A DNA stretch of 64,000 nt from Patescibacteria group bacterium (GTDB lineage Bacteria > Patescibacteriota > Microgenomatia > UBA1400 > PJMF01), in NCBI GenBank assembly GCA_016861205.1, contig BOKX01000001.1, forward strand, positions 1,076,589 to 1,140,588. Direction: 5' to 3'. The translations under genes were made by a program, and so were the position numbers. Below the pieces are notes generated by a model. That model was not told where the DNA came from and did not search any database. It saw only the letters and a list, made by a program, of their open reading frames with translations. This document shows, in pieces, positions 2,351 to 47,118 of the stretch; within the stretch, counting starts at the first letter, position 1, and every line of letters starts with the position of its first letter.

Positions 2351-2403
2351 TAACTATTTCCTGCAAAGCTTTCCGCACCTCACGAACTGGGGAAGTAGTC
2401 GAA

Positions 2404-2515
2404 TCTGAACAAACTGTCTTTTTGAACGCCTCACAAAGTGCGAAATGAGCAAAACCAAAGTGGAAGTGCCTACATCTGAACAAACTGTCTTTTTGAACGC
2501 CTCACGAAGTGCGAA
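2404..2515. repeat. tandem direct repeat, 2 copies of a ~41-nt core (period 71 nt) adjacent to tRNA-Ala
   Basis: The core tctgaacaaactgtctttttgaacgcctcac[a/g]aagtgcgaa occurs at 2404-2444 and again at 2475-2515. Confidence 0.6.
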
Positions 2516-2539
2516 GTGAAAAAAGACAGTTTGTGAAGA

Positions 2540-2613
2540 GTGGACCCGATCGGACTCGAACCGACTACCTTTGCAATGCGAATGCAACGCTCTACCAGGT
2601 GAGCTACGGGCCC
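2540..2613 (-). tRNA. tRNA-Ala (anticodon CGC)
   Basis: The reverse complement folds as a cloverleaf with a GGGCCCG acceptor stem, a G3:U70 wobble (the Ala identity element), a TTCGCAT anticodon loop, a GGTTCGAGTCC T-arm and discriminator A. Confidence 0.85.
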
Positions 2614-2649
2614 AAACAGACAGTTTGGACTGTCGAACAGACAAGGGGA

Positions 2650-5105: not shown

Positions 5106-5663
5106 TTAGTTTGTTTTAGGACTGACTGTTGGTTTCGGGCTAACAGTAGTTTTGGGACTGGTGCTGGGTTTTGCGCTGCCCGCTGGTGAAGCGGCAGTTT
5201 TTGCCGAACTACTGCTGTCATCAATCGACAAAAATTCGTTAACTGCCAACACGACTGATCGCTCAACTGTTGTGGTTTGGCCGCTTGGATCAATTGAAGT
5301 TATCACAATAATGCTCCCACCAGGTGGCAAAGTGACAGTGGTGGAGAAGTGGCCACCATTGTCAGCGGTGGTGGTGATGTCCTGGGTGCCCAAGCTGATC
5401 ACAACTGTGGAGTCCGGAATGGTGGTACCAGCTACGGTGAGCTCACTTTCTGAAACCAACGACTCATCTTCCGGGCTGGAGATCACCAACGTGCTTGACG
5501 CAGTCACTGGACTGGCCATTGGGGTGGGCGTCGCGGCCATGTTAGAGTCGGAACTGAGCGAGTTGCTCGCCACGTAAATGCCGTAGGTCATGATGAGACC
5601 CAGCGTCACGCCGATTAGGATTGCTAAAATGACTTCCTTGCGCATACGTTCAGGAAACATCAT
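5106..5663 (-). CDS. membrane-anchored hypothetical surface protein (bacterial Ig-like region, Ser/Thr/Pro-rich tail)
   Basis: The start was chosen at MMFPERMRKEVILAILIG, a signal anchor preceded by TATAAT. An internal segment (DSTVVISLGTQDITTTADNGGHFSTTVTLPPGGSI) resembles an Ig-like fold. Its architecture is paralogous to the next gene. Confidence 0.5.
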   Translation of the reverse strand: MMFPERMRKEVILAILIGVTLGLIMTYGIYVASNSLSSDSNMAATPTPMASPVTASSTLVISSPEDESLVSESELTVAGTTIPDSTVVISLGTQDITTTADNGGHFSTTVTLPPGGSIIVITSIDPSGQTTTVERSVVLAVNEFLSIDDSSSSAKTAASPAGSAKPSTSPKTTVSPKPTVSPKTN

Positions 5664-5855
5664 TATAAATGAGATAGTTTGATTAGAAAACCCGCGCTTC
5701 AATCTGGAGTGCTTCTTGCAGAGTGCCTTCAGCTGCTGAGAAGGCATCTTCATGCACTCTGCAAAACGCATTTGATGAAAGTATGCTGCTGAAAGCGTGA
5801 ACTTGTTCTTCTGGAGTTGTTTTGGTATTCTCTAGCCAGAAAGTTCGAGGTGGAT

Positions 5856-23810: not shown

Positions 23811-23857
23811 TTTGGTAGTCTAGATAGAGACTTTTATTAATGAGTAGATGAAGGAGT

Positions 23858-23909
23858 GTTTTGTAGTTTTGAGTCCGACTTTTCTCTGGAGGAGGAAAAA
23901 CTACAAAAC
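23858..23909 (+). promoter_or_regulatory. long perfect hairpin in tsf leader (13-bp stem GTTTTGTAGTTTT / AAAACTACAAAAC, 25-nt loop containing GGAGGAGG)
   Basis: The stem arms at 23858-23870 and 23897-23909 are exact reverse complements. AAGGAG sits immediately 5' of the stem, and the ATG follows 8 nt after it. Confidence 0.4.
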
Positions 23910-23917
23910 AGACAATT

Positions 23918-24376
23918 ATGAGTTACACCGCTGCAGACGTTAAACAACTTCGTGAAGAAACCGGTGCTGGCATGATGGACTGTAAAAAAGCCCTCGACGA
24001 AGCCGGCGGCGACTACGCCAAAGCTCGCGACTTAGTGCGAGAGCGTGGCTTAGCCAAAGCTGAGAAGAAAGCTGACCGCGAAACCAAAGAAGGTTACATC
24101 GCTAGTTATGTTCACGCCACCGGCAAGAATGCCGTGATGGTTGAACTGCTGTGCGAAACCGACTTTGTCGGCCGCAACGAAGAGTTCCGCGCTTTGGGTC
24201 GGGATATCGCCATGCAAGTTTCTGCCATGGCCCCTGAGACCGTTGAAGAACTGTTAGCTCAAGAGTTTATTAAAGATGGCTCACAAACCATTGAGCAAAT
24301 GCTCAAGGCTTTGAGTGGCAAAATCGGCGAAAAGCTGATGGTTGGCCGCTTTGTGCGCTACGTAGTGGGCGAGTAA
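23918..24376 (+). CDS. tsf: elongation factor Ts (short form)
   Basis: It has an N-terminal UBA-like domain (VKQLREETGAGMMDCKKAL) and an EF-Ts core. It follows rpsB, the conserved rpsB-tsf order. Confidence 0.85.
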   Translation: MSYTAADVKQLREETGAGMMDCKKALDEAGGDYAKARDLVRERGLAKAEKKADRETKEGYIASYVHATGKNAVMVELLCETDFVGRNEEFRALGRDIAMQVSAMAPETVEELLAQEFIKDGSQTIEQMLKALSGKIGEKLMVGRFVRYVVGE

Positions 24377-24429: not shown

Positions 24430-25512
24430 TCAGGTAATCAGCATCGCATCACCAAAACTGAGGAATCGGTAGTCTTGTTGCAAGGCCACTTGGTAAGCAG
24501 CACCCAACGTGGTGTCGGCGAACGAAGTGAACGAGTGGGCGGTGTTGGGTTGGGTGACAAAGGCGGAAACAAGCATCAGTAACGTTGAGTCTGGTTCGTG
24601 GAAGTTGGTGATTAAGCCATCAATAGCCTCGAATCGATAGGGCGGATAAATGAAGATCCTGGTTTCACCACTGCCAGCTACAAATTGATGGCGTTCGTGA
24701 TCGAAGCAGGTTTCCAACACGCGAGTGGTGGTAGTTCCAACTGAGATGATACGTCGACCGGCCTGGCGAGCAGCATTGAGGGCGGCCGCGGTGTCAGCCG
24801 AGAACGAGTAGGTCTCAGCGTGCATCTCGTGCTGCGTGATGTCATCAACTTTGACACGCAGGAATGTGCCCAGCCCAACGTGCAAGGTAACTTCGTGAAT
24901 CTCAACACCCAGCTGTGTTAGCGCCTGGTCAACCGCTGGCGTAAAGTGCAGACCAGCCGTTGGTGCAGCGGCTGAGCCAGCCACTTTGGCGTAGAGGGTC
25001 TGGTACAACTGACGTAGTTCCTGTGGGTCATCACCGTGCCACTCGAGGTAGGGAGGTAGGGGAGTATGACCAATTTTCTCGAGGCTTTCGAACAGTTCGG
25101 TATGTGACTGGTTAAACTCAATCGTCCGACTAAAACCGGTGATCTCGGCACAACTTCCTTCAAGGTCCACATTGTCAAAGACGACTGTTTGGCCAGGTTT
25201 GAGACCGGGCTTGGTCAGACACTCCCAGCGCTCAGTCGCTGAGCCACTGCTTAGTCGTTTGGCGAGCAGGATTTCGACTTCACCACCGGACTTTTTTCGC
25301 CCGAAAATCCGAGCCGGAATTACTTTGGTGTTGTTGCGCACCAAGATGTCGGTGGGCCAGAGCAGGCTGGGCAACTCCCGAAAGTGGTGGTGATGCAGCT
25401 CGCCAGTCTCACGGTTGACGACCAGCAACCGGCTGCTGTCTCGAGGTACAGCTGGAGTCTGTGCAATTCGCTCAGCAGGGAGGTCATAGTGGAAATCTCG
25501 AGGTGAGAGCAT
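24430..25512 (-). CDS. queA: S-adenosylmethionine:tRNA ribosyltransferase-isomerase
   Basis: The N-terminus matches QueA (FHYDLPAERIAQTPAVPRDSSRLLVV). The start was trimmed to MLSPRDFHYDLP. Confidence 0.85.
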   Translation of the reverse strand: MLSPRDFHYDLPAERIAQTPAVPRDSSRLLVVNRETGELHHHHFRELPSLLWPTDILVRNNTKVIPARIFGRKKSGGEVEILLAKRLSSGSATERWECLTKPGLKPGQTVVFDNVDLEGSCAEITGFSRTIEFNQSHTELFESLEKIGHTPLPPYLEWHGDDPQELRQLYQTLYAKVAGSAAAPTAGLHFTPAVDQALTQLGVEIHEVTLHVGLGTFLRVKVDDITQHEMHAETYSFSADTAAALNAARQAGRRIISVGTTTTRVLETCFDHERHQFVAGSGETRIFIYPPYRFEAIDGLITNFHEPDSTLLMLVSAFVTQPNTAHSFTSFADTTLGAAYQVALQQDYRFLSFGDAMLIT

Positions 25513-25584
25513 AACCATGTATTATACTGCACCGGTTTTGAGCGCTCGGCTGGCTTGGCAGATAGAGTACAATAGCTGTTCAAG

Positions 25585-29951: not shown

Positions 29952-31638
29952 AAATCAGCTTTTGAAGCATCTTGGTCGTTTTTTTTAAACAAAAACGGAT
30001 TTTGTGGGCAGAAAAAAACTGTGTTGGCTGGACGAGGGGAGAGACCAGGCTAAAAAGGGGTAGATGATATAGTTTGATGCAGTATATCAAACTATATCAT
30101 GATTGTGGAAAACTTTCGTAAATTATAGGACATAATCTCGGGCTACCAGGCTAAAATAAATGTTTCACGCGTGAAAACAAATGTCAGGTTAACCAAACGC
30201 GACCAGGCAGTTTTCAGGCTGTCTCCTCTGGGGAGAGCAGCAGAAAAGAAAACCCGAATGCCTGTTTAGCCTGGTGCAAGAATAATTAGCCTGGTACCAG
30301 GCTACATAGTACGAGAGACCCAAGAGGGGTCAAAATGCCTGTCATCAGTGATGATGGGAATAGTCCAGATTAAATGCAGTGTGGCACACTGATTTCACCA
30401 GATAAAAAAACTGTGAGTTGGAAATTTCCTCGGTCTACTCCGTCGGGCGAGGGAGCAAGAATCAGAGCATAGATTATGTCGCACAATATTACTTTTACGA
30501 CATTAACTAAAAATACTCGAGGTAGGTCTGATTAGCTGTCTTGCCTTACAACTGGTTATTTTTGGTGCTGATTTTATCTGTATTATTCTTTTTGCTCTCA
30601 AATCAATCCATTTCCCCACATCTGTTAACTGTCTTTAAATCTGCCCGTTGTGACCAGATCTGACCAGGCTTGATTCTTGAGGGTGTCTCGCCTCTTCTTG
30701 GCCAACTTTAGCCTGGTGTAATCTGGAGAAGGGTGTGGTTACCAGCTTCAAATTGGCGGCAGAATAGATTTGAGCCACAACGACCGAGTTTTAGCTGGTT
30801 AGAGCTAACACACCAATGACCACTAGGTCGGATTTGAAATAAAAAGCCGATTTTGGGCGTTTAGGAGGCTTAATTTTTAGCCTGGAGATTTATATTAACA
30901 TTGATGTATCAATCTTTGATCGTTGGGGGTAAAAATTAGTTGAAAAGGCGGCGGTTGGGATTGGTCACCCAGGCATCAGTACGAGCTGCCAGACTAGGTA
31001 CACTGGTTGCAGCTAAGTACAGACATGTCATGTGACAGTTGGTTGCAATCTGTCACACCGCATAGTTTGTTTGTCCGTTTTGAGCGCCGAGCAAAACTCG
31101 ACCACCGTACAAGCCTGAACTCATAGCCATGAGGGATGTGTCTACAAACCAACCGCGGTGCCTTATGTCGCACAATTTTTTTGGCACTCGCCAATTTTTT
31201 GCCAAGCTAGCTGGCGATGCGTGTGTGCTACACATCGACATATGTACTAAGGTTGGTTTGTAATAGTAGCTAGCCTGTCCAAACCACTAGTACGGCGCTG
31301 TTTCATAATCGAATCGAAGTTCGAAGGGTGTTTTTTTGTTTTTTTAAAGTTGGTAAGCAACTGCCGAAACCATTCGGCCGTTATAGTGTACAGTTGACCT
31401 TTTTTTGCCTGGACTCAGTTTTAGGTTCGACCTTATTTTTTATTGATATATCAATCCCCACATCAAGATGATGGTTTTAGCAGAATTTAAGAAGTTCTGC
31501 CAAAGACTTATAGTATTTGAACTTGAGGTGATCTTGAGAGAGGTGGGTAGGGGGTGTGCCCTCCCCTGTCGCCGAACCAAGCTCAAAAGGTGAGCTTTCT
31601 GATATGGTTTTGGCGTAGCTGCATGATACCATGAAAGC
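29952..31638. other. 1.7-kb AT-rich non-coding island with repeated TTAGCCTGGT motifs, palindromes and direct repeats
   Basis: No ORF of 60 aa or more lies in 29952-30993, and only three short, implausible ones follow. The island is visibly lower in GC than its flanks. The individual repeats are listed in the findings. Confidence 0.6.
30287..30304. repeat. 18-bp perfect palindrome TAGCCTGGTACCAGGCTA
   Basis: Read directly from the sequence. It contains two back-to-back copies of the island's recurring TTAGCCTGGT motif. Confidence 0.7.
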
Positions 31639-32574
31639 ATGGCTGTCTCGACTAAACCTGCAGTAGCGTTAGTGACCTTTCTTGAGCATCTCGAGGTTGA
31701 GCGAAATGTCAGCCGACTGACGATTCGAAACTATGGTCACTATCTGCGCCGTTTTTGTGACTGGTTCGCAACACAAGGCGGTCAGGACCTCAAGACCCTT
31801 GATGCTGATGTGATTCGCCAGTATCGCGTCTACTTGGCTCGATATGTGGATGATCAAGGCAGGACACTTTCCAAGAAAACCCAGAGCTACTATGTGATTG
31901 CACTAAGATCTTGGCTCAAGTGGTTGACCAAGCAGGATGCTCCTGTGCTCAATCCAACTAAGATTGATCTGCCGAAAGCTGAGTCGCAATCAATGAAGTT
32001 TTTAAATGTTGAGCAGGTTGAACGGTTGTTGGCGCAACCAAAGTTGTCGAGTAAAACCGGACTGCGAGACAAGGCGCTACTAGAAGTCTTGTTTTCAACC
32101 GGATTACGGGTTAGTGAACTGGTGTCACTCAATCGGGATCAAGTTGATACTAGTCGTCGTGAGTTTGGAGTGATTGGAAAAGGTCGCCGACCACGGGTGG
32201 TTTTCTTAAGTGACCGGGCCGCTGATTGGGTTAACAAATGGTTAGCGAGTCGTGAAGATAATTGGAGACCGGTATTTATTCGGCTAAGTCGCAATAAACC
32301 TGATTTGCTCAGCGATGGTGAGGATATGCGTTTAACAACTCGCAGTGTGCAGAGGTTGGTAGATACATACTGTCGGCAAGCTCGGCTGCCCGTCAAAATT
32401 AGTCCGCACGGTTTGCGGCACAGTTTTGCCACTGATCTTCTGTCGAACGGAGCTGGTCTGCGCGACGTGCAAGAAATGCTCGGTCACAAGAGTATTGCTA
32501 CCACCCAAATTTATACGCATGTCACCCGGCCACAACTTCGCAAGATTCATGGTGAGTACCATAGCAAACTATGA
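31639..32574 (+). CDS. site-specific tyrosine recombinase, XerC/XerD family
   Basis: The N-terminal core-binding domain resembles XerD. Catalytic motifs LLEVLFSTGLRVSELVSL and HGLRHSFAT...LGHKSIATTQIYTHV carry the conserved R..H..R.Y residues. Confidence 0.85.
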   Translation: MAVSTKPAVALVTFLEHLEVERNVSRLTIRNYGHYLRRFCDWFATQGGQDLKTLDADVIRQYRVYLARYVDDQGRTLSKKTQSYYVIALRSWLKWLTKQDAPVLNPTKIDLPKAESQSMKFLNVEQVERLLAQPKLSSKTGLRDKALLEVLFSTGLRVSELVSLNRDQVDTSRREFGVIGKGRRPRVVFLSDRAADWVNKWLASREDNWRPVFIRLSRNKPDLLSDGEDMRLTTRSVQRLVDTYCRQARLPVKISPHGLRHSFATDLLSNGAGLRDVQEMLGHKSIATTQIYTHVTRPQLRKIHGEYHSKL

Positions 32575-43902: not shown

Positions 43903-43955
43903 GTACAGTTTTGTAGTAAGCGAATTGGAAGTTAGGAGACTAGAACAATTAAGGA

Positions 43956-44013
43956 GTTTTAAACTTGTCTTTTGCCTGATTTCTCTCTGGAAGGTAAAAG
44001 ACAAGTTTAAAAC
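43956..44013 (+). promoter_or_regulatory. long perfect hairpin in pilT leader (18-bp stem GTTTTAAACTTGTCTTTT / AAAAGACAAGTTTAAAAC, 22-nt loop)
   Basis: The arms are exact reverse complements. AAGGAG sits immediately 5' of the stem. The loop contains tttctctctggaagg, and the ATG follows 8 nt after the stem. Confidence 0.4.
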
Positions 44014-44021
44014 GAACTTTT

Positions 44022-45080
44022 ATGAACATTCACGACATTCTCCAACTAGCGGTTGATAAAGATGCTTCAGATATTCACTTGATCACTAAAATTCCGATCA
44101 TGCTGCGGGTTCACGGCCAACTGTCACCCGTGGAGGGATCGCCTCCCCAGCTGACTCCGGAACAAGCTGAGGCGCTGATTTTTCCGCTCATGACCCAGGA
44201 GCAAAAAGACTATGTTTTGGTAAACAAGGAAATTGACTTTGGGTACCAGTACAAAGATCTCGGTCGGTTCCGTATCAATGTGTACCACCAACAAGGTGCC
44301 ATGGCAGCCGCTTTGCGGTTGATTCCGTCGCGGGTCAAGAGCATCGAAGAACTGCAGTTACCGCAAGTTTTTTACCAGTTTACTGAGTACAAACAGGGCT
44401 TAGTGTTAGTGACCGGTCCGACTGGTGAAGGTAAGTCAACAACCTTAGCTGCGCTGATTGAACATATTAACGCCAACCGAAGTGAACACATCCTGACAAT
44501 TGAAGACCCTATCGAGTTTGTCTACACCCCACGCAACAGTATCGTGTCTCAACGGGAGATCAATCATGACACCAACGGCTGGGAAGTTGCGTTGCGGTCT
44601 GCTTTGCGCGAGGACCCTGACGTAGTACTCGTTGGTGAGTTACGCGACTACGAAACGATCGCATCGGCCATGACGATTGCTGAAACCGGACACTTAGTGT
44701 TTGCCACACTTCATACTTCGACGGCGGCCCAAACAATCGATCGTATCATCGATGTGTTCCCTGCCCATCAACAGGGCCAGGTTCGGCAACAGTTGGCCTC
44801 GTCTTTACAGGCAGTAGTGTCGCAGCGCTTGATCCCTAAAGTGGATGGCGGCCGAGTTCCGGCATTCGAGATCATGTTGGCAACGCCAGCTATTCGCAAC
44901 CTGATCCGTGAACAGAAGACCTTCCAAATCGACAACGTCATTCAGACCTCAGCTGAGCAAGGTATGTCACTGATTGAAACCTACTTGTGGAACCTCGTGC
45001 AACGAGGCGCAGTTAACCACGATAAAGCCCGTGAACATGCGTTTCGCCCTGATGAGTTTGATCGCCTAGGAGGTAGATAA
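44022..45080 (+). CDS. pilT: twitching motility ATPase PilT
   Basis: It has Walker A GPTGEGKSTT, the PilT signature region AIRNLIRE, and is 352 aa. Confidence 0.85.
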   Translation: MNIHDILQLAVDKDASDIHLITKIPIMLRVHGQLSPVEGSPPQLTPEQAEALIFPLMTQEQKDYVLVNKEIDFGYQYKDLGRFRINVYHQQGAMAAALRLIPSRVKSIEELQLPQVFYQFTEYKQGLVLVTGPTGEGKSTTLAALIEHINANRSEHILTIEDPIEFVYTPRNSIVSQREINHDTNGWEVALRSALREDPDVVLVGELRDYETIASAMTIAETGHLVFATLHTSTAAQTIDRIIDVFPAHQQGQVRQQLASSLQAVVSQRLIPKVDGGRVPAFEIMLATPAIRNLIREQKTFQIDNVIQTSAEQGMSLIETYLWNLVQRGAVNHDKAREHAFRPDEFDRLGGR

Positions 45081-46282
45081 TGGCATTGTTTGCTTACTCT
45101 GCCAAGAACGATCACGGTGAGCCGGTAAAGGGCAAGGTTGAAGCCCAAACCAAACAACAAGCGGTGGCGGCCTTGCGTGGCCGAAACTTGCTGGTGATTA
45201 GTATTCGCCCAGTTAGTGAAGAGTCATTCGCCATTCTCAAAACCCTGATGTTTGGGATTAAGGCAGATGATGTGGTGAACTTAACTCGTCAACTTTCAAC
45301 CATGATTACCGCTGGTCTGCCGTTGACGCAGGCCTTGGCCATCTTGGAACAACAGGGCAAGCCAGCCTTGATTAAGGTTGTTGGTCAAGTGAAAGCAGAC
45401 ATTGAAGGTGGCAGTACGTTTGCGGCAGCTCTGGCCAAGCATCCCAAGGTTTTTTCTCGCGTCTATATACAGTTAGTGCGGGCTGGCGAAACCGGTGGTG
45501 TCCTCGATGAGGTGTTGCTTCGGTTAGCAGACAACATGGAAAAGGACAAAGAGTTTCGTGCCAAGACTAAAGGTGCGTTGATCTATCCAGTGATTGTGGT
45601 GATTGCGATGATCATCGTCGCCATGGTCATGATGATTTTTGTAATTCCCAAACTGACCGAAATGTACAAGGATTTCGGGGCAGATTTGCCATTGGCTACC
45701 CAACTCCTAATTGACACCTCAACCCTCGTTTCCCGTTTTTGGTGGTTGCTGGGCGTTTTCGGTGCAGTTGGAGTGATGTTTTTCCGCAGCTGGGGTAAAA
45801 CGCACGCCGGCCAAGTTGCCATCGACAGTTTTTTGCTGAGAATGCCGGTCTTTGGTGTTCTGCGTCAAAAAGCCATGCTCACTGAGTTGACACGGACATT
45901 AGCTTTGTTGCTTGGGGCGGGTATCTCACTGCTGCAGGCTTTAGAAATTGTGTCAGATTCGGCAAATAATATCCTGTACCGTGAAGCTTTGGCCGATATT
46001 GCCAAACAAGTTGAGAAAGGTATTTCTCTCGCTCAGGCGGTCGGGGTGCATGCCATTTTCCCCCCACTCCTCTATCAAATGGTGGCGGTGGGTGAAGAGA
46101 CCGGTAAACTCGACGATGTATTGATGAAGTTATCAGCGTACTTTCAGTCGGAAAGTGAACACGCGATTAAAAATCTGACAACAGCCTTAGAGCCAATTAT
46201 CATGATTGTGCTGGGGTTGGGTGTGGGTTTGATGGTCATTGCGATCATCATGCCAATTTACAATCTCACCAGTCAGTTCTAG
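45080..46282 (+). CDS. pilC: type IV pilus platform protein PilC (GspF family)
   Basis: Two GspF repeats with conserved membrane helices. The protein is 400 aa. Confidence 0.85.
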   Translation: MALFAYSAKNDHGEPVKGKVEAQTKQQAVAALRGRNLLVISIRPVSEESFAILKTLMFGIKADDVVNLTRQLSTMITAGLPLTQALAILEQQGKPALIKVVGQVKADIEGGSTFAAALAKHPKVFSRVYIQLVRAGETGGVLDEVLLRLADNMEKDKEFRAKTKGALIYPVIVVIAMIIVAMVMMIFVIPKLTEMYKDFGADLPLATQLLIDTSTLVSRFWWLLGVFGAVGVMFFRSWGKTHAGQVAIDSFLLRMPVFGVLRQKAMLTELTRTLALLLGAGISLLQALEIVSDSANNILYREALADIAKQVEKGISLAQAVGVHAIFPPLLYQMVAVGEETGKLDDVLMKLSAYFQSESEHAIKNLTTALEPIIMIVLGLGVGLMVIAIIMPIYNLTSQF

Positions 46283-46327
46283 CTCTGTTACTGTTAACGT
46301 GAATCTAGTTGCTCTGGAATATTGATT

Positions 46328-46384
46328 GTTTTCAGGATAAGTTAGAGAGCGCCTTTTTAGCGCTCGAGAACTTATCCTGAAAAC
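46328..46384 (+). promoter_or_regulatory. long perfect hairpin upstream of pilin gene (16-bp stem GTTTTCAGGATAAGTT / AACTTATCCTGAAAAC, 25-nt loop with internal GAGCGC/GCGCTC hairpin)
   Basis: The arms are exact reverse complements and lie 43 nt upstream of the pilin ATG. Confidence 0.4.
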
Positions 46385-46426
46385 AACCCTTGCAATCAAC
46401 TTAAAAAATGGTGTACCCTGGAGAAT

Positions 46427-47035: not shown

Positions 47036-47118
47036 TCGAGACACTCACCAAGAAACTGAAACCCCCTCGCCTAGGCGAGGGGGTTTGCGTTTCGGAGGAA
47101 AAGTTTTTATACTCAGGC

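Follow-up and report, generated by a model that had tools for sequence, protein, structure and literature searches.

Short self-complementary repeats such as the Correia/NEMIS, REP/BIME, ERIC, RUP/BOX, and MIRU elements occupy intergenic and intra-operon spacers, where they are co-transcribed with their neighbors, fold within the mRNA, and affect its stability or translation, and MIRUs sit between the genes of operons with translation of the downstream gene preserved. Hairpins processed by RNase III likewise occur between cistrons or flanking stable RNAs. Structure can also act within a ribosome-binding site (RBS): in genes 38 and 25 of phage T4, it has been shown experimentally to cut the spacing between the Shine-Dalgarno (SD) word and the AUG from 22 to 5 nt and from 27 to 11 nt, respectively (PMC3014915), and a long, stable hairpin at the split RBS of Escherichia coli thrS stays folded while the ribosome binds around it (PMC3936740). 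At the DNA level, template switching creates inverted repeats and maintains them in a perfect state (PMC5941160, PMC8794818). Here, we describe four long hairpins, H1 to H4, in a 64-kb stretch of DNA (hereafter the window; contig BOKX01000001.1) from a bacterium that is CPR (candidate phyla radiation)/Patescibacteria-like, its best named relatives being Pacebacteria/Patescibacteria metagenome-assembled genomes (MAGs). H2 occupies the spacer between rpsB and tsf, H3 the spacer between pilB and pilT, and H4 the spacer between pilC and a pilin gene, and H1 is flanked by the 3′ end of a plus-strand gene on one side and a minus-strand tRNA-Ala gene on the other. H2 and H3 fill the entire interval between an SD word and a start codon, and we tentatively read them as young palindromic insertions that may act as hairpin-bridged, or ‘split’, SD sites.

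The four sites were read directly and were also recovered in an independent scan for perfect inverted repeats. The arms of H1 lie at 2480–2494 and 2520–2534 (15-bp stem, 25-nt loop), those of H2 at 23857–23870 and 23897–23910 on the plus strand (14 bp, 26 nt), those of H3 at 43956–43973 and 43996–44013 on the plus strand (18 bp, 22 nt, and extendable by four further pairs, GCCT/AGGT, to 22 bp), and those of H4 at 46326–46343 and 46369–46386 on the plus strand (18 bp, 25 nt). All four stems are perfect, AT-rich, and intergenic. A first-pass annotation of the window had already reported four perfect inverted repeats at these sites, and both the direct reading and the scan bear this out, with the arms of H1 shifted by 1–2 nt relative to its coordinates; its description of the stems as beginning with GTTTT applies to H2, H3, and H4 but not to H1, which begins with ACAAAC. 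Perfect stems of at least 14 bp with loops of 3–40 nt number five in the window versus 0.0 in 100 dinucleotide-preserving shuffles, and those of at least 13 bp number five versus 0.03 expected from the shuffles; all five are intergenic, the fifth being located at 30064–30100. A chance origin of these stems is excluded, and the first-pass annotation was right to treat the hairpins as non-random. RNA folding predicts energies of − 25 to − 41 kcal/mol with z-scores of − 4.0 to − 12, and independent assemblies of at least eight sequencing runs contain the same hairpins; thus, they are not assembly artefacts.

H2 and H3 share a single build, consisting of AAGGAG, a stem, a conserved loop, the returning stem, 7–8 nt, and ATG. 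Upstream of tsf, the plus-strand SD word (23851–23856) ends directly at the 5′ arm of H2 (23857), the hairpin with its loop GAGTCCGACTTTTCTCTGGAGGAGGA spans 23857–23910, and a 7-nt spacer, GACAATT, leads to the ATG at 23918 (23911–23920). On the same strand, the upstream part of the pilB-pilT spacer in the allele carried by the window (allele A; 43903–43950) starts directly after the pilB stop codon and contains GTTTTGTAGT, which is identical to the 5′ arm of H2. The AAGGAG of pilT (43951–43956) follows at the 5′ foot of H3, its final G being the first base of the stem, and is succeeded by the 5′ arm GTTTTAAACTTGTCTTTT (43956–43973), which covaries with the 3′ arm between alleles, the conserved loop (43974–43995), the 3′ arm AAAAGACAAGTTTAAAAC (43996–44013), which was identified both by direct reading and in the inverted-repeat scan, and an 8-nt spacer, GAACTTTT, that ends at the pilT ATG at 44022 (44014–44024). 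The N-terminus of PilT, MNIHDIL, agrees with that of relatives, and an in-frame stop at 43995 excludes an earlier start. The first-pass annotation had noted AAGGAG immediately 5′ of both stems and a motif common to the two loops, and both observations are real.

The consensus of the two loops is GAYUUYUCUCUGGARG with a 3-bp apical helix. This helix, of 3–4 bp, sits atop the basal stem (UCC/GGA in H2, CCU/AGG in H3) and is followed by GA opposite GA, a C-G or U.G pair, and an 8-nt pyrimidine loop (UUUUCUCU). In H3, the apical helix is formed by 43974–43977 and 43992–43995, the opposed GA dinucleotides by 43978–79 and 43990–91, and the U.G pair by 43980 and 43989; the pyrimidine loop is UUCUCUCU (43981–43988), and the loop also holds an SD-like GGAAGG. 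A covariance model built from H2 and H3 scores them at 72.7 and 70.5 bits, and the opposite strand of either reaches 25–32 bits versus 70–73 bits on the gene strand; the far lower score indicates that the loop is strand-specific. H2 and H3 are clear homologues, related to one another and tied to translation starts as first proposed.

Measured linearly, the distance from the end of AAGGAG to the ATG is 61 nt at H2 and 65–66 nt at H3, beyond the limit of about 15 nt for ordinary SD spacing. The SD word ends 0–1 nt before the stem and the ATG begins 7–8 nt after it at H2 and at both known alleles of H3, alleles A and B, and this SD/AUG geometry is the feature that survives all of the divergence among the three. 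The predicted minimum free energies of the H2 and H3 hairpins are − 25 to − 32 kcal/mol. The SD word at the foot lies outside the stem, and its GGAG core and the AUG are predicted to be largely unpaired; the AAGGAG of pilT is predicted to be mostly unpaired and is kept as AGAGGAG in allele B.

The two pilT-spacer alleles occur among contigs that encode an identical PilT protein. Allele B reads AGAGGAG-TTGTACGTTTGTTTTG-AGCCTGACTTTTCTCTGGAAGGTG-CAAAACAAACGTACAA-ACGAATT-ATG and forms a different stem that is again perfect: 6 of 16 pairs differ from those of allele A with pairing intact, and the genes flanking the two alleles are about 99% identical. Identity between the alleles is 33% in the upstream spacer, 75% in the SD word, 59% in each arm, where the changes are complementary, and 91% in the loop. 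At the background level of divergence, point mutation falls far short of explaining this difference, which points to replacement, independent insertion, or locally accelerated change; a blastn-short search of the upstream part of either allele against the collected sequences returned no donor. When H2, H3 of allele A, H3 of allele B, and one loop variant were compared over 17 modelled pairs, all 17 were paired in every sequence and eight had changed on both sides, a result reached in 0 of 500 shuffles; two of the eight lie in the apical helix, which covaries between H2 and H3. Other strains depart from this perfection, with an extra U (a bulge) and a U.G pair in H2, a pair in H4 that is A.C in two strains and A-T in a further one, as against G-C in the window, and a T.T mismatch in H1 in two contigs from different sequencing runs (L138, L139). 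In the strains with the extra T in the 5′ arm of H2 (L131–L135, L137), an upstream open reading frame (ORF) runs from an ATG before AAGGAG through the hairpin and ends in a TGA that overlaps the tsf ATG (ATGA); its frame differs in the window strain, the ORF is thus probably accidental, and we rejected a role for upstream ORFs through the hairpin on the ground that the frame is not conserved between strains. A separate cluster of variation is seen at about 45020–45520 (the end of pilT and start of pilC), with 21–24 strain differences per 500-nt bin versus 1–6 in neighboring bins, probably a tract of recombination separate from the spacer alleles.

The hairpins are absent from the nearest relatives. 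In the closest genome found (GCA_964421945.1; PilT 90% and Tsf 78% identical, with the Tsf of the nearest relatives at 78–81%), the gap between pilB and pilT is 5 nt (TAG-tcact-ATG), the rpsB-tsf spacer is 28 nt with a plain SD, and the pilC-pilin spacer is 61 nt and keeps a promoter-like block described below without a hairpin. No such hairpin was found at pilB-pilT, pilC-pilin, or rpsB-tsf in this genome or in the other, more distant relatives examined, and a survey of 80 GTDB pilT loci detected no AT-rich long-loop hairpins in CPR relatives. One relative with 83% PilT identity carries an unrelated GC-rich hairpin in its pilB-pilT spacer, upstream of a normal SD. The absence from the nearest relatives indicates young, species-specific insertions and not conserved regulatory leaders, and the idea that these are conserved leaders is accordingly abandoned: the orthologous leaders of the closest relatives carry no such structure, an outcome that the first-pass annotation had itself named as refuting. 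The 28-nt rpsB-tsf spacer of the relative resembles the loop of H2 (z = 3.9) and not the sequence upstream of H2 (z = 0.6), and the upstream parts of the rpsB-tsf and pilB-pilT (allele B) spacers, which are 107 and 108 nt long, are alike (z = 2.8). This modest evidence suggests that the loop descends from the ancestral tsf ribosome-binding region and that the whole spacer was copied to pilT.

Given this geometry, the reading that we favor, at slightly below an even chance, is that H2 and H3 are co-transcribed palindromic insertions acting as a hairpin-bridged split SD site by analogy with T4 genes 38 and 25. Under this reading, copies of a young, species-specific palindromic element would have inserted into the rpsB-tsf and pilB-pilT operons and would be transcribed with the flanking genes, and in the mRNA each would form a long hairpin composed of an AU-rich stem at the base, a short helix at the apex, and the conserved pyrimidine/GGA loop. 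The hairpin would then take up the whole interval between a strong SD at its 5′ foot (AAGGAG or AGAGGAG) and the start codon, so that folding would shrink the linear SD-AUG distance of 61–66 nt to an effective 7–8 nt, and the 30S subunit would use the foot SD across the looped-out hairpin. We propose that pairing is kept by selection because unfolding would disconnect the SD from the AUG, with arm-to-arm template switching at the DNA level probably helping to keep it; the conserved loop may have a role as well. The folding predictions, in which the SD core and the AUG are accessible, are compatible with such bridging. The tsf gene is normally essential, and the insertion is present there in every strain seen; translation must therefore cope with the hairpin. 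The first-pass annotation had suggested that the structure presents the GGAGG of the loop, which is unlikely, since no start codon lies within 13 nt downstream of that word; we rejected it as a working SD on this ground, and the foot AAGGAG, acting via a looped-out hairpin, is the better candidate.

The likeness to the T4 genes is that the SD and AUG are too far apart linearly, that the foot of a stem-loop abuts the SD and restores the spacing (to a predicted 7–8 nt here; 5 and 11 nt in T4), and that the structure is lineage-restricted and located at an intercistronic junction (PMC3014915). The differences are that the hairpin here is 54–58 nt with a stem of 14–22 bp, as opposed to about 16–17 nt in T4, that its conserved loop holds a second SD-like word, and that it resides in two unrelated operons of a cellular, CPR-like genome. 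The thrS case differs in position: the hairpin there, an operator bound by ThrRS, precedes the SD and separates a single-stranded standby region from the SD/AUG, whereas H2 and H3 lie between the SD and the AUG. Several observations weigh against a bridging function. The hairpin is much larger than in the T4 cases; the bulge, U.G, A.C, and T.T states tolerated in other strains imply that pairing is favored and not under absolute constraint; the genome uses SD words poorly, with an SD-like word at only about 14 of 59 starts and many genes leaderless-looking, so an SD may not be required; and close relatives express the same genes without the element, which is thus dispensable in principle. The model also leaves the conservation of the loop unexplained, as it does the presence of H1 and H4 away from starts.

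Those two hairpins bear on the claim that all four elements form one family with one architecture, which holds in full for H2 and H3 only: H1 scores 19.9 bits and H4 10.4 bits with the covariance model and both occupy other contexts. H1 (2480–2534) lies 6 nt downstream of the tRNA-Ala(cgc) gene and 130 nt past the stop of the plus-strand gene at 1379–2350. Its stem is related to that of H3 via the word AAACT(T)GTCTTTT (z = 3.6), a resemblance that the first-pass annotation had correctly identified, and part of H1 (the 5′ arm and loop, read in the plus-strand sense) is repeated in tandem at 2403–2444, within a 70-nt tandem duplication that is missing in one strain (L140). In the region 2403–2627 (minus strand), AAACTGTCTGTTT stands directly before the tRNA-Ala(cgc) gene and the H1 arm ACAAACTGTCTTTTT 6 nt after it, and this leader can pair with the 3′ arm of H1 at 13 of 14 positions in an arrangement that resembles a processing stalk. 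H4 (46326–46386, plus strand) has an 18-bp basal stem, an inner helix at 46347–46352/46360–46365 (GAGCGC/GCGCTC), and a CTTTTTA loop; it shares a TGTTTT foot with H2 (z = 3.5), and CTCTGGAA, a word of the H2/H3 loop, occurs on the plus strand at 46312–46319, 6 nt before its 5′ arm. CTCTGGA occurs four times on the plus strand of the window, and three of these sites are at H2, H3, and H4. The distance from the 3′ arm to the ATG is 7 nt at H2, 8 nt at H3, and 40 nt at H4, so the stated placement upstream of start codons describes these three and fails for H1, which follows a tRNA and a convergent gene; the foot SD is found only in the copies that abut a start codon, H2 and H3, and there is none at H1 or H4. 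Judged by these words, the relationships among the four hairpins are mosaic, with stem, foot, loop, and arm words shared in different combinations. We regard H1 and H4 as elements more loosely related to H2 and H3, which puts the count in the window at two clear and two loose copies. An 11-bp perfect hairpin at 5716–5764 was dropped as a candidate member given that its stem length is near chance (0.5 expected per window); it has a 27-nt loop and encloses the start codons of the minus-strand gene at 5106–5747/5771.

Between H4 and the pilin ATG (46427) lies a promoter-like block on the plus strand, TTGCAATCAA ... GTGTACCCT (46390–46419). The arrangement TTGCAATCAA-N13/14-GTGTACNCTGG (46390–46426 in the window) is conserved in the 90% relative, where it constitutes the TTGCAATCAA...GTGTACNCTGG block retained in the 61-nt spacer, and its second half is also present in a 76% relative. 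The block is probably the promoter of the pilin gene, which would then have a very short leader; it was not called by the consensus promoter scanner.

Among the other explanations for the hairpins, we consider it unlikely that they are simply intercistronic processing or stability elements, whereby RNase III would cut the duplex or exonucleases would be blocked, uncoupling the stability and translation of the cistrons, and the downstream gene would after cleavage be translated from a short A-rich leader without an SD. Such hairpins are similarly long, near-perfect duplexes in intercistronic spacers and beside tRNAs. Consistent with this account, all copies lie about 44–54 nt past the upstream stop or directly after a tRNA, however far away the next start may be, numerous genes that lack an SD or look leaderless are translated in this genome, the relative with 83% PilT identity has its unrelated GC-rich hairpin in the same pilB-pilT spacer, and the tRNA-Ala leader is complementary to the 3′ arm of H1 in the manner of a stalk, giving the leader-trailer complementarity around the tRNA expected of the class. 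H3 of allele A (22 bp) and H4 (18 + 6 bp) reach the duplex length of about 20 bp needed for RNase III; however, H1 (15 bp) and H2 (14 bp) are marginal, H2 being short for a substrate, and the account does not explain the conservation of the loop or why the SD is kept at the 5′ foot and the ATG at 7–8 nt from the 3′ foot in three diverged versions. An equally unlikely account, in our estimation, is that the hairpins are small palindromic repeats, selfish or neutral, that resemble REP, MITE, or Correia elements or arose by template switching, that lack a function of their own, and that are tolerated only where their folding is harmless. They resemble such repeats in being self-complementary, inserted in spacers, and present or absent between close relatives, occurring in this species and being absent at all three loci in the nearest relatives; their parts are shared mosaically (the H1/H3 stem, the H2 arm word in the H3 spacer, and the H4 foot with CTCTGGAA); the rpsB-tsf and pilB-pilT (allele B) spacers look paralogous end to end, at 107 versus 108 nt, with z = 2.8 for their upstream parts; and the strains are polymorphic at a roughly neutral rate. 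The long Watson-Crick stems, the joint change of both arms, and the mismatch followed by restoration at H4 are in keeping with template switching, a documented source of inverted repeats that also preserves their pairing (PMC5941160, PMC8794818), but this is a mutational mechanism and not a function, and by itself it does not account for the SD/AUG geometry or the conserved loop. Known small palindromic repeats have conserved termini, high copy numbers, and, in MITEs, target duplications, whereas here the terminal arms of H1, H2, H3 (both alleles), and H4 differ, sequence sharing is confined to the upper stem (U.GU.UU) and the loop, the loop and not the ends being the conserved part, and two clear copies (four at most) are found in the window. 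There is no consistent target-site duplication (flanking pairs GGAG and GACA, AGGA and GAAC, GGAG and ACGA, TTGA and CCCT), pattern scans of JGI metagenome and viral collections gave no further copies, and the conserved orientation and SD/AUG geometry argue for selection. Of the proposals in the first-pass annotation, RNase III or stability roles and a MITE-like origin may both still apply; the classical marks of a MITE, conserved termini and target-site duplication, are absent.

Distinctly unlikely is a self-copying intercistronic ‘RBS cassette’ of about 105–120 nt, comprising spacer, SD, hairpin with conserved loop, and short leader, in which the loop would stem from the ancestral rpsB-tsf RBS region, the cassette would have been copied to other operon junctions, and a dedicated copying or diversifying mechanism, as opposed to ordinary point mutation, would recognize the loop and act on the hairpin. 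The two deeply diverged and fully compensated pilT alleles amid genes that are 99% identical would, on this account, imply such a mechanism. A regulatory operator, in which a protein or RNA (for example, a GGA binder of the CsrA type, or the 30S subunit using a standby site) would recognize the conserved loop and tune the translation of tsf and pilT, is very unlikely. The loop is 91% conserved where the neighboring spacer is saturated with change, the apical helix covaries, and the loop is strand-specific, with two GGA motifs, one at the foot and one in the loop, about 35–40 nt apart; against this, we identified no candidate factor, Rfam returned no match at E ≤ 5, relatives go without the element, and the resemblance of the loop to the plain rpsB-tsf spacer of the relative (z = 3.9) means that its conservation could reflect inherited RBS sequence and not a binding site. 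Least of all do we expect unusual factor-independent terminators or attenuators between genes, an extremely improbable reading. Each hairpin does follow a stop codon, with H1 between convergent units and H4 between pilC and the promoter-like block of the pilin gene; nonetheless, the terminator scan was empty at 4 of 4 sites, the stems are AT-rich with long loops (22–26 nt) and no U-tract on either strand, no promoter was called downstream of the hairpin for tsf or pilT, and the genome has ordinary GC-rich, T-tailed terminators elsewhere, e.g., at 47052–47093. Canonical terminators were rejected on the same grounds, in agreement with the initial annotation.

Further readings were considered and set aside. 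A fourU/ROSE RNA thermometer was rejected because the SD lies outside the stem and is predicted to be largely unpaired, a loop-to-SD pseudoknot because the pairing is possible in allele B alone and is not conserved, and a PyrR-like reading of the reverse-complemented loop (UCCAGAGAG) because it is on the wrong strand and has no Rfam match. Mutagenesis of the adenine-specific type seen in diversity-generating retroelements (DGRs) was rejected for the difference between alleles A and B because the changes are not adenine-specific, and loop inversion (flip-flop) because the loop has the same orientation in all alleles. In Rfam 15, only three tRNAs reached the gathering score in the window, and no hairpin produced a match even at E ≤ 5. 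The promoter scanner called nothing on the gene strand at the hairpins, where it returned one promoter-like match on the opposite strand at the tsf start; a weak TTGGTA-N17-TATTAA upstream of H2 was below its threshold. The loop pattern had 33 matches in viral contigs, all in coding sequence without stems, a stricter version had one match in JGI metagenomes, in coding sequence, and the cores of H1 and H4 had no match in the viral collections.

The GC content of the window is 48.6%, and the EF-Ts encoded by tsf is just 152 aa. TATAAT-like boxes are found 3–10 nt before the ATG of many genes (e.g., 24430–25518 on the minus strand, 28608, 41887, 47119, 48070), and together with the sparse SD words they suggest that leaderless or SD-independent initiation is widespread in this organism. 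In GTDB, the records closest by PilT carry the name ‘uncultured Pseudomonadales’ yet group with Pacebacteria/Patescibacteria MAGs; the name is probably a taxonomic mislabel. Elsewhere in the window, a 1.7-kb stretch at 29952–31638 has no ORF longer than 71 aa, a GC content of 43%, and 98% conservation between strains, and lies directly upstream of a tyrosine recombinase gene (31639–32574). It holds six of the eight copies of TTAGCCTGG in the window (0.5 expected), in both orientations, and has no Rfam match; a reading as a replication origin was rejected for want of a GC-skew switch. The fifth long stem, at 30064–30100, is a perfect 15-bp palindrome with a 7-nt spacer (ATGATATAGTTTGAT gcagtat ATCAAACTATATCAT) flanked by inverted copies of CCAGGCTAA, a geometry that, near the recombinase gene, resembles a core site of the lox/FRT type.

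Taken with the first-pass annotation, the present analysis adds the deep, compensated alleles and the absence from relatives, and depicts a set of hairpins less uniform than had been claimed, in which two known kinds of element, the split SD site and the small palindromic insertion, would be combined. Were the hairpins merely neutral palindromes, they would amount to a minor note on repeat content. The two deep pilT alleles, with all stem differences compensated within near-identical surroundings, constitute an unusually clean natural experiment for studying the origin of hairpins, the upkeep of their pairing, and their exchange. Should the bridging reading be true, H2 and H3 would be a natural cellular split SD far larger than those of phage T4, situated before a gene whose product, a translation factor, is normally essential, in a reduced genome of the CPR type where SD words are otherwise little used; ribosomes could then initiate across a looped-out hairpin of 55 nt, and insertions in the most sensitive few nucleotides of a gene would be tolerable when they fold upon themselves.

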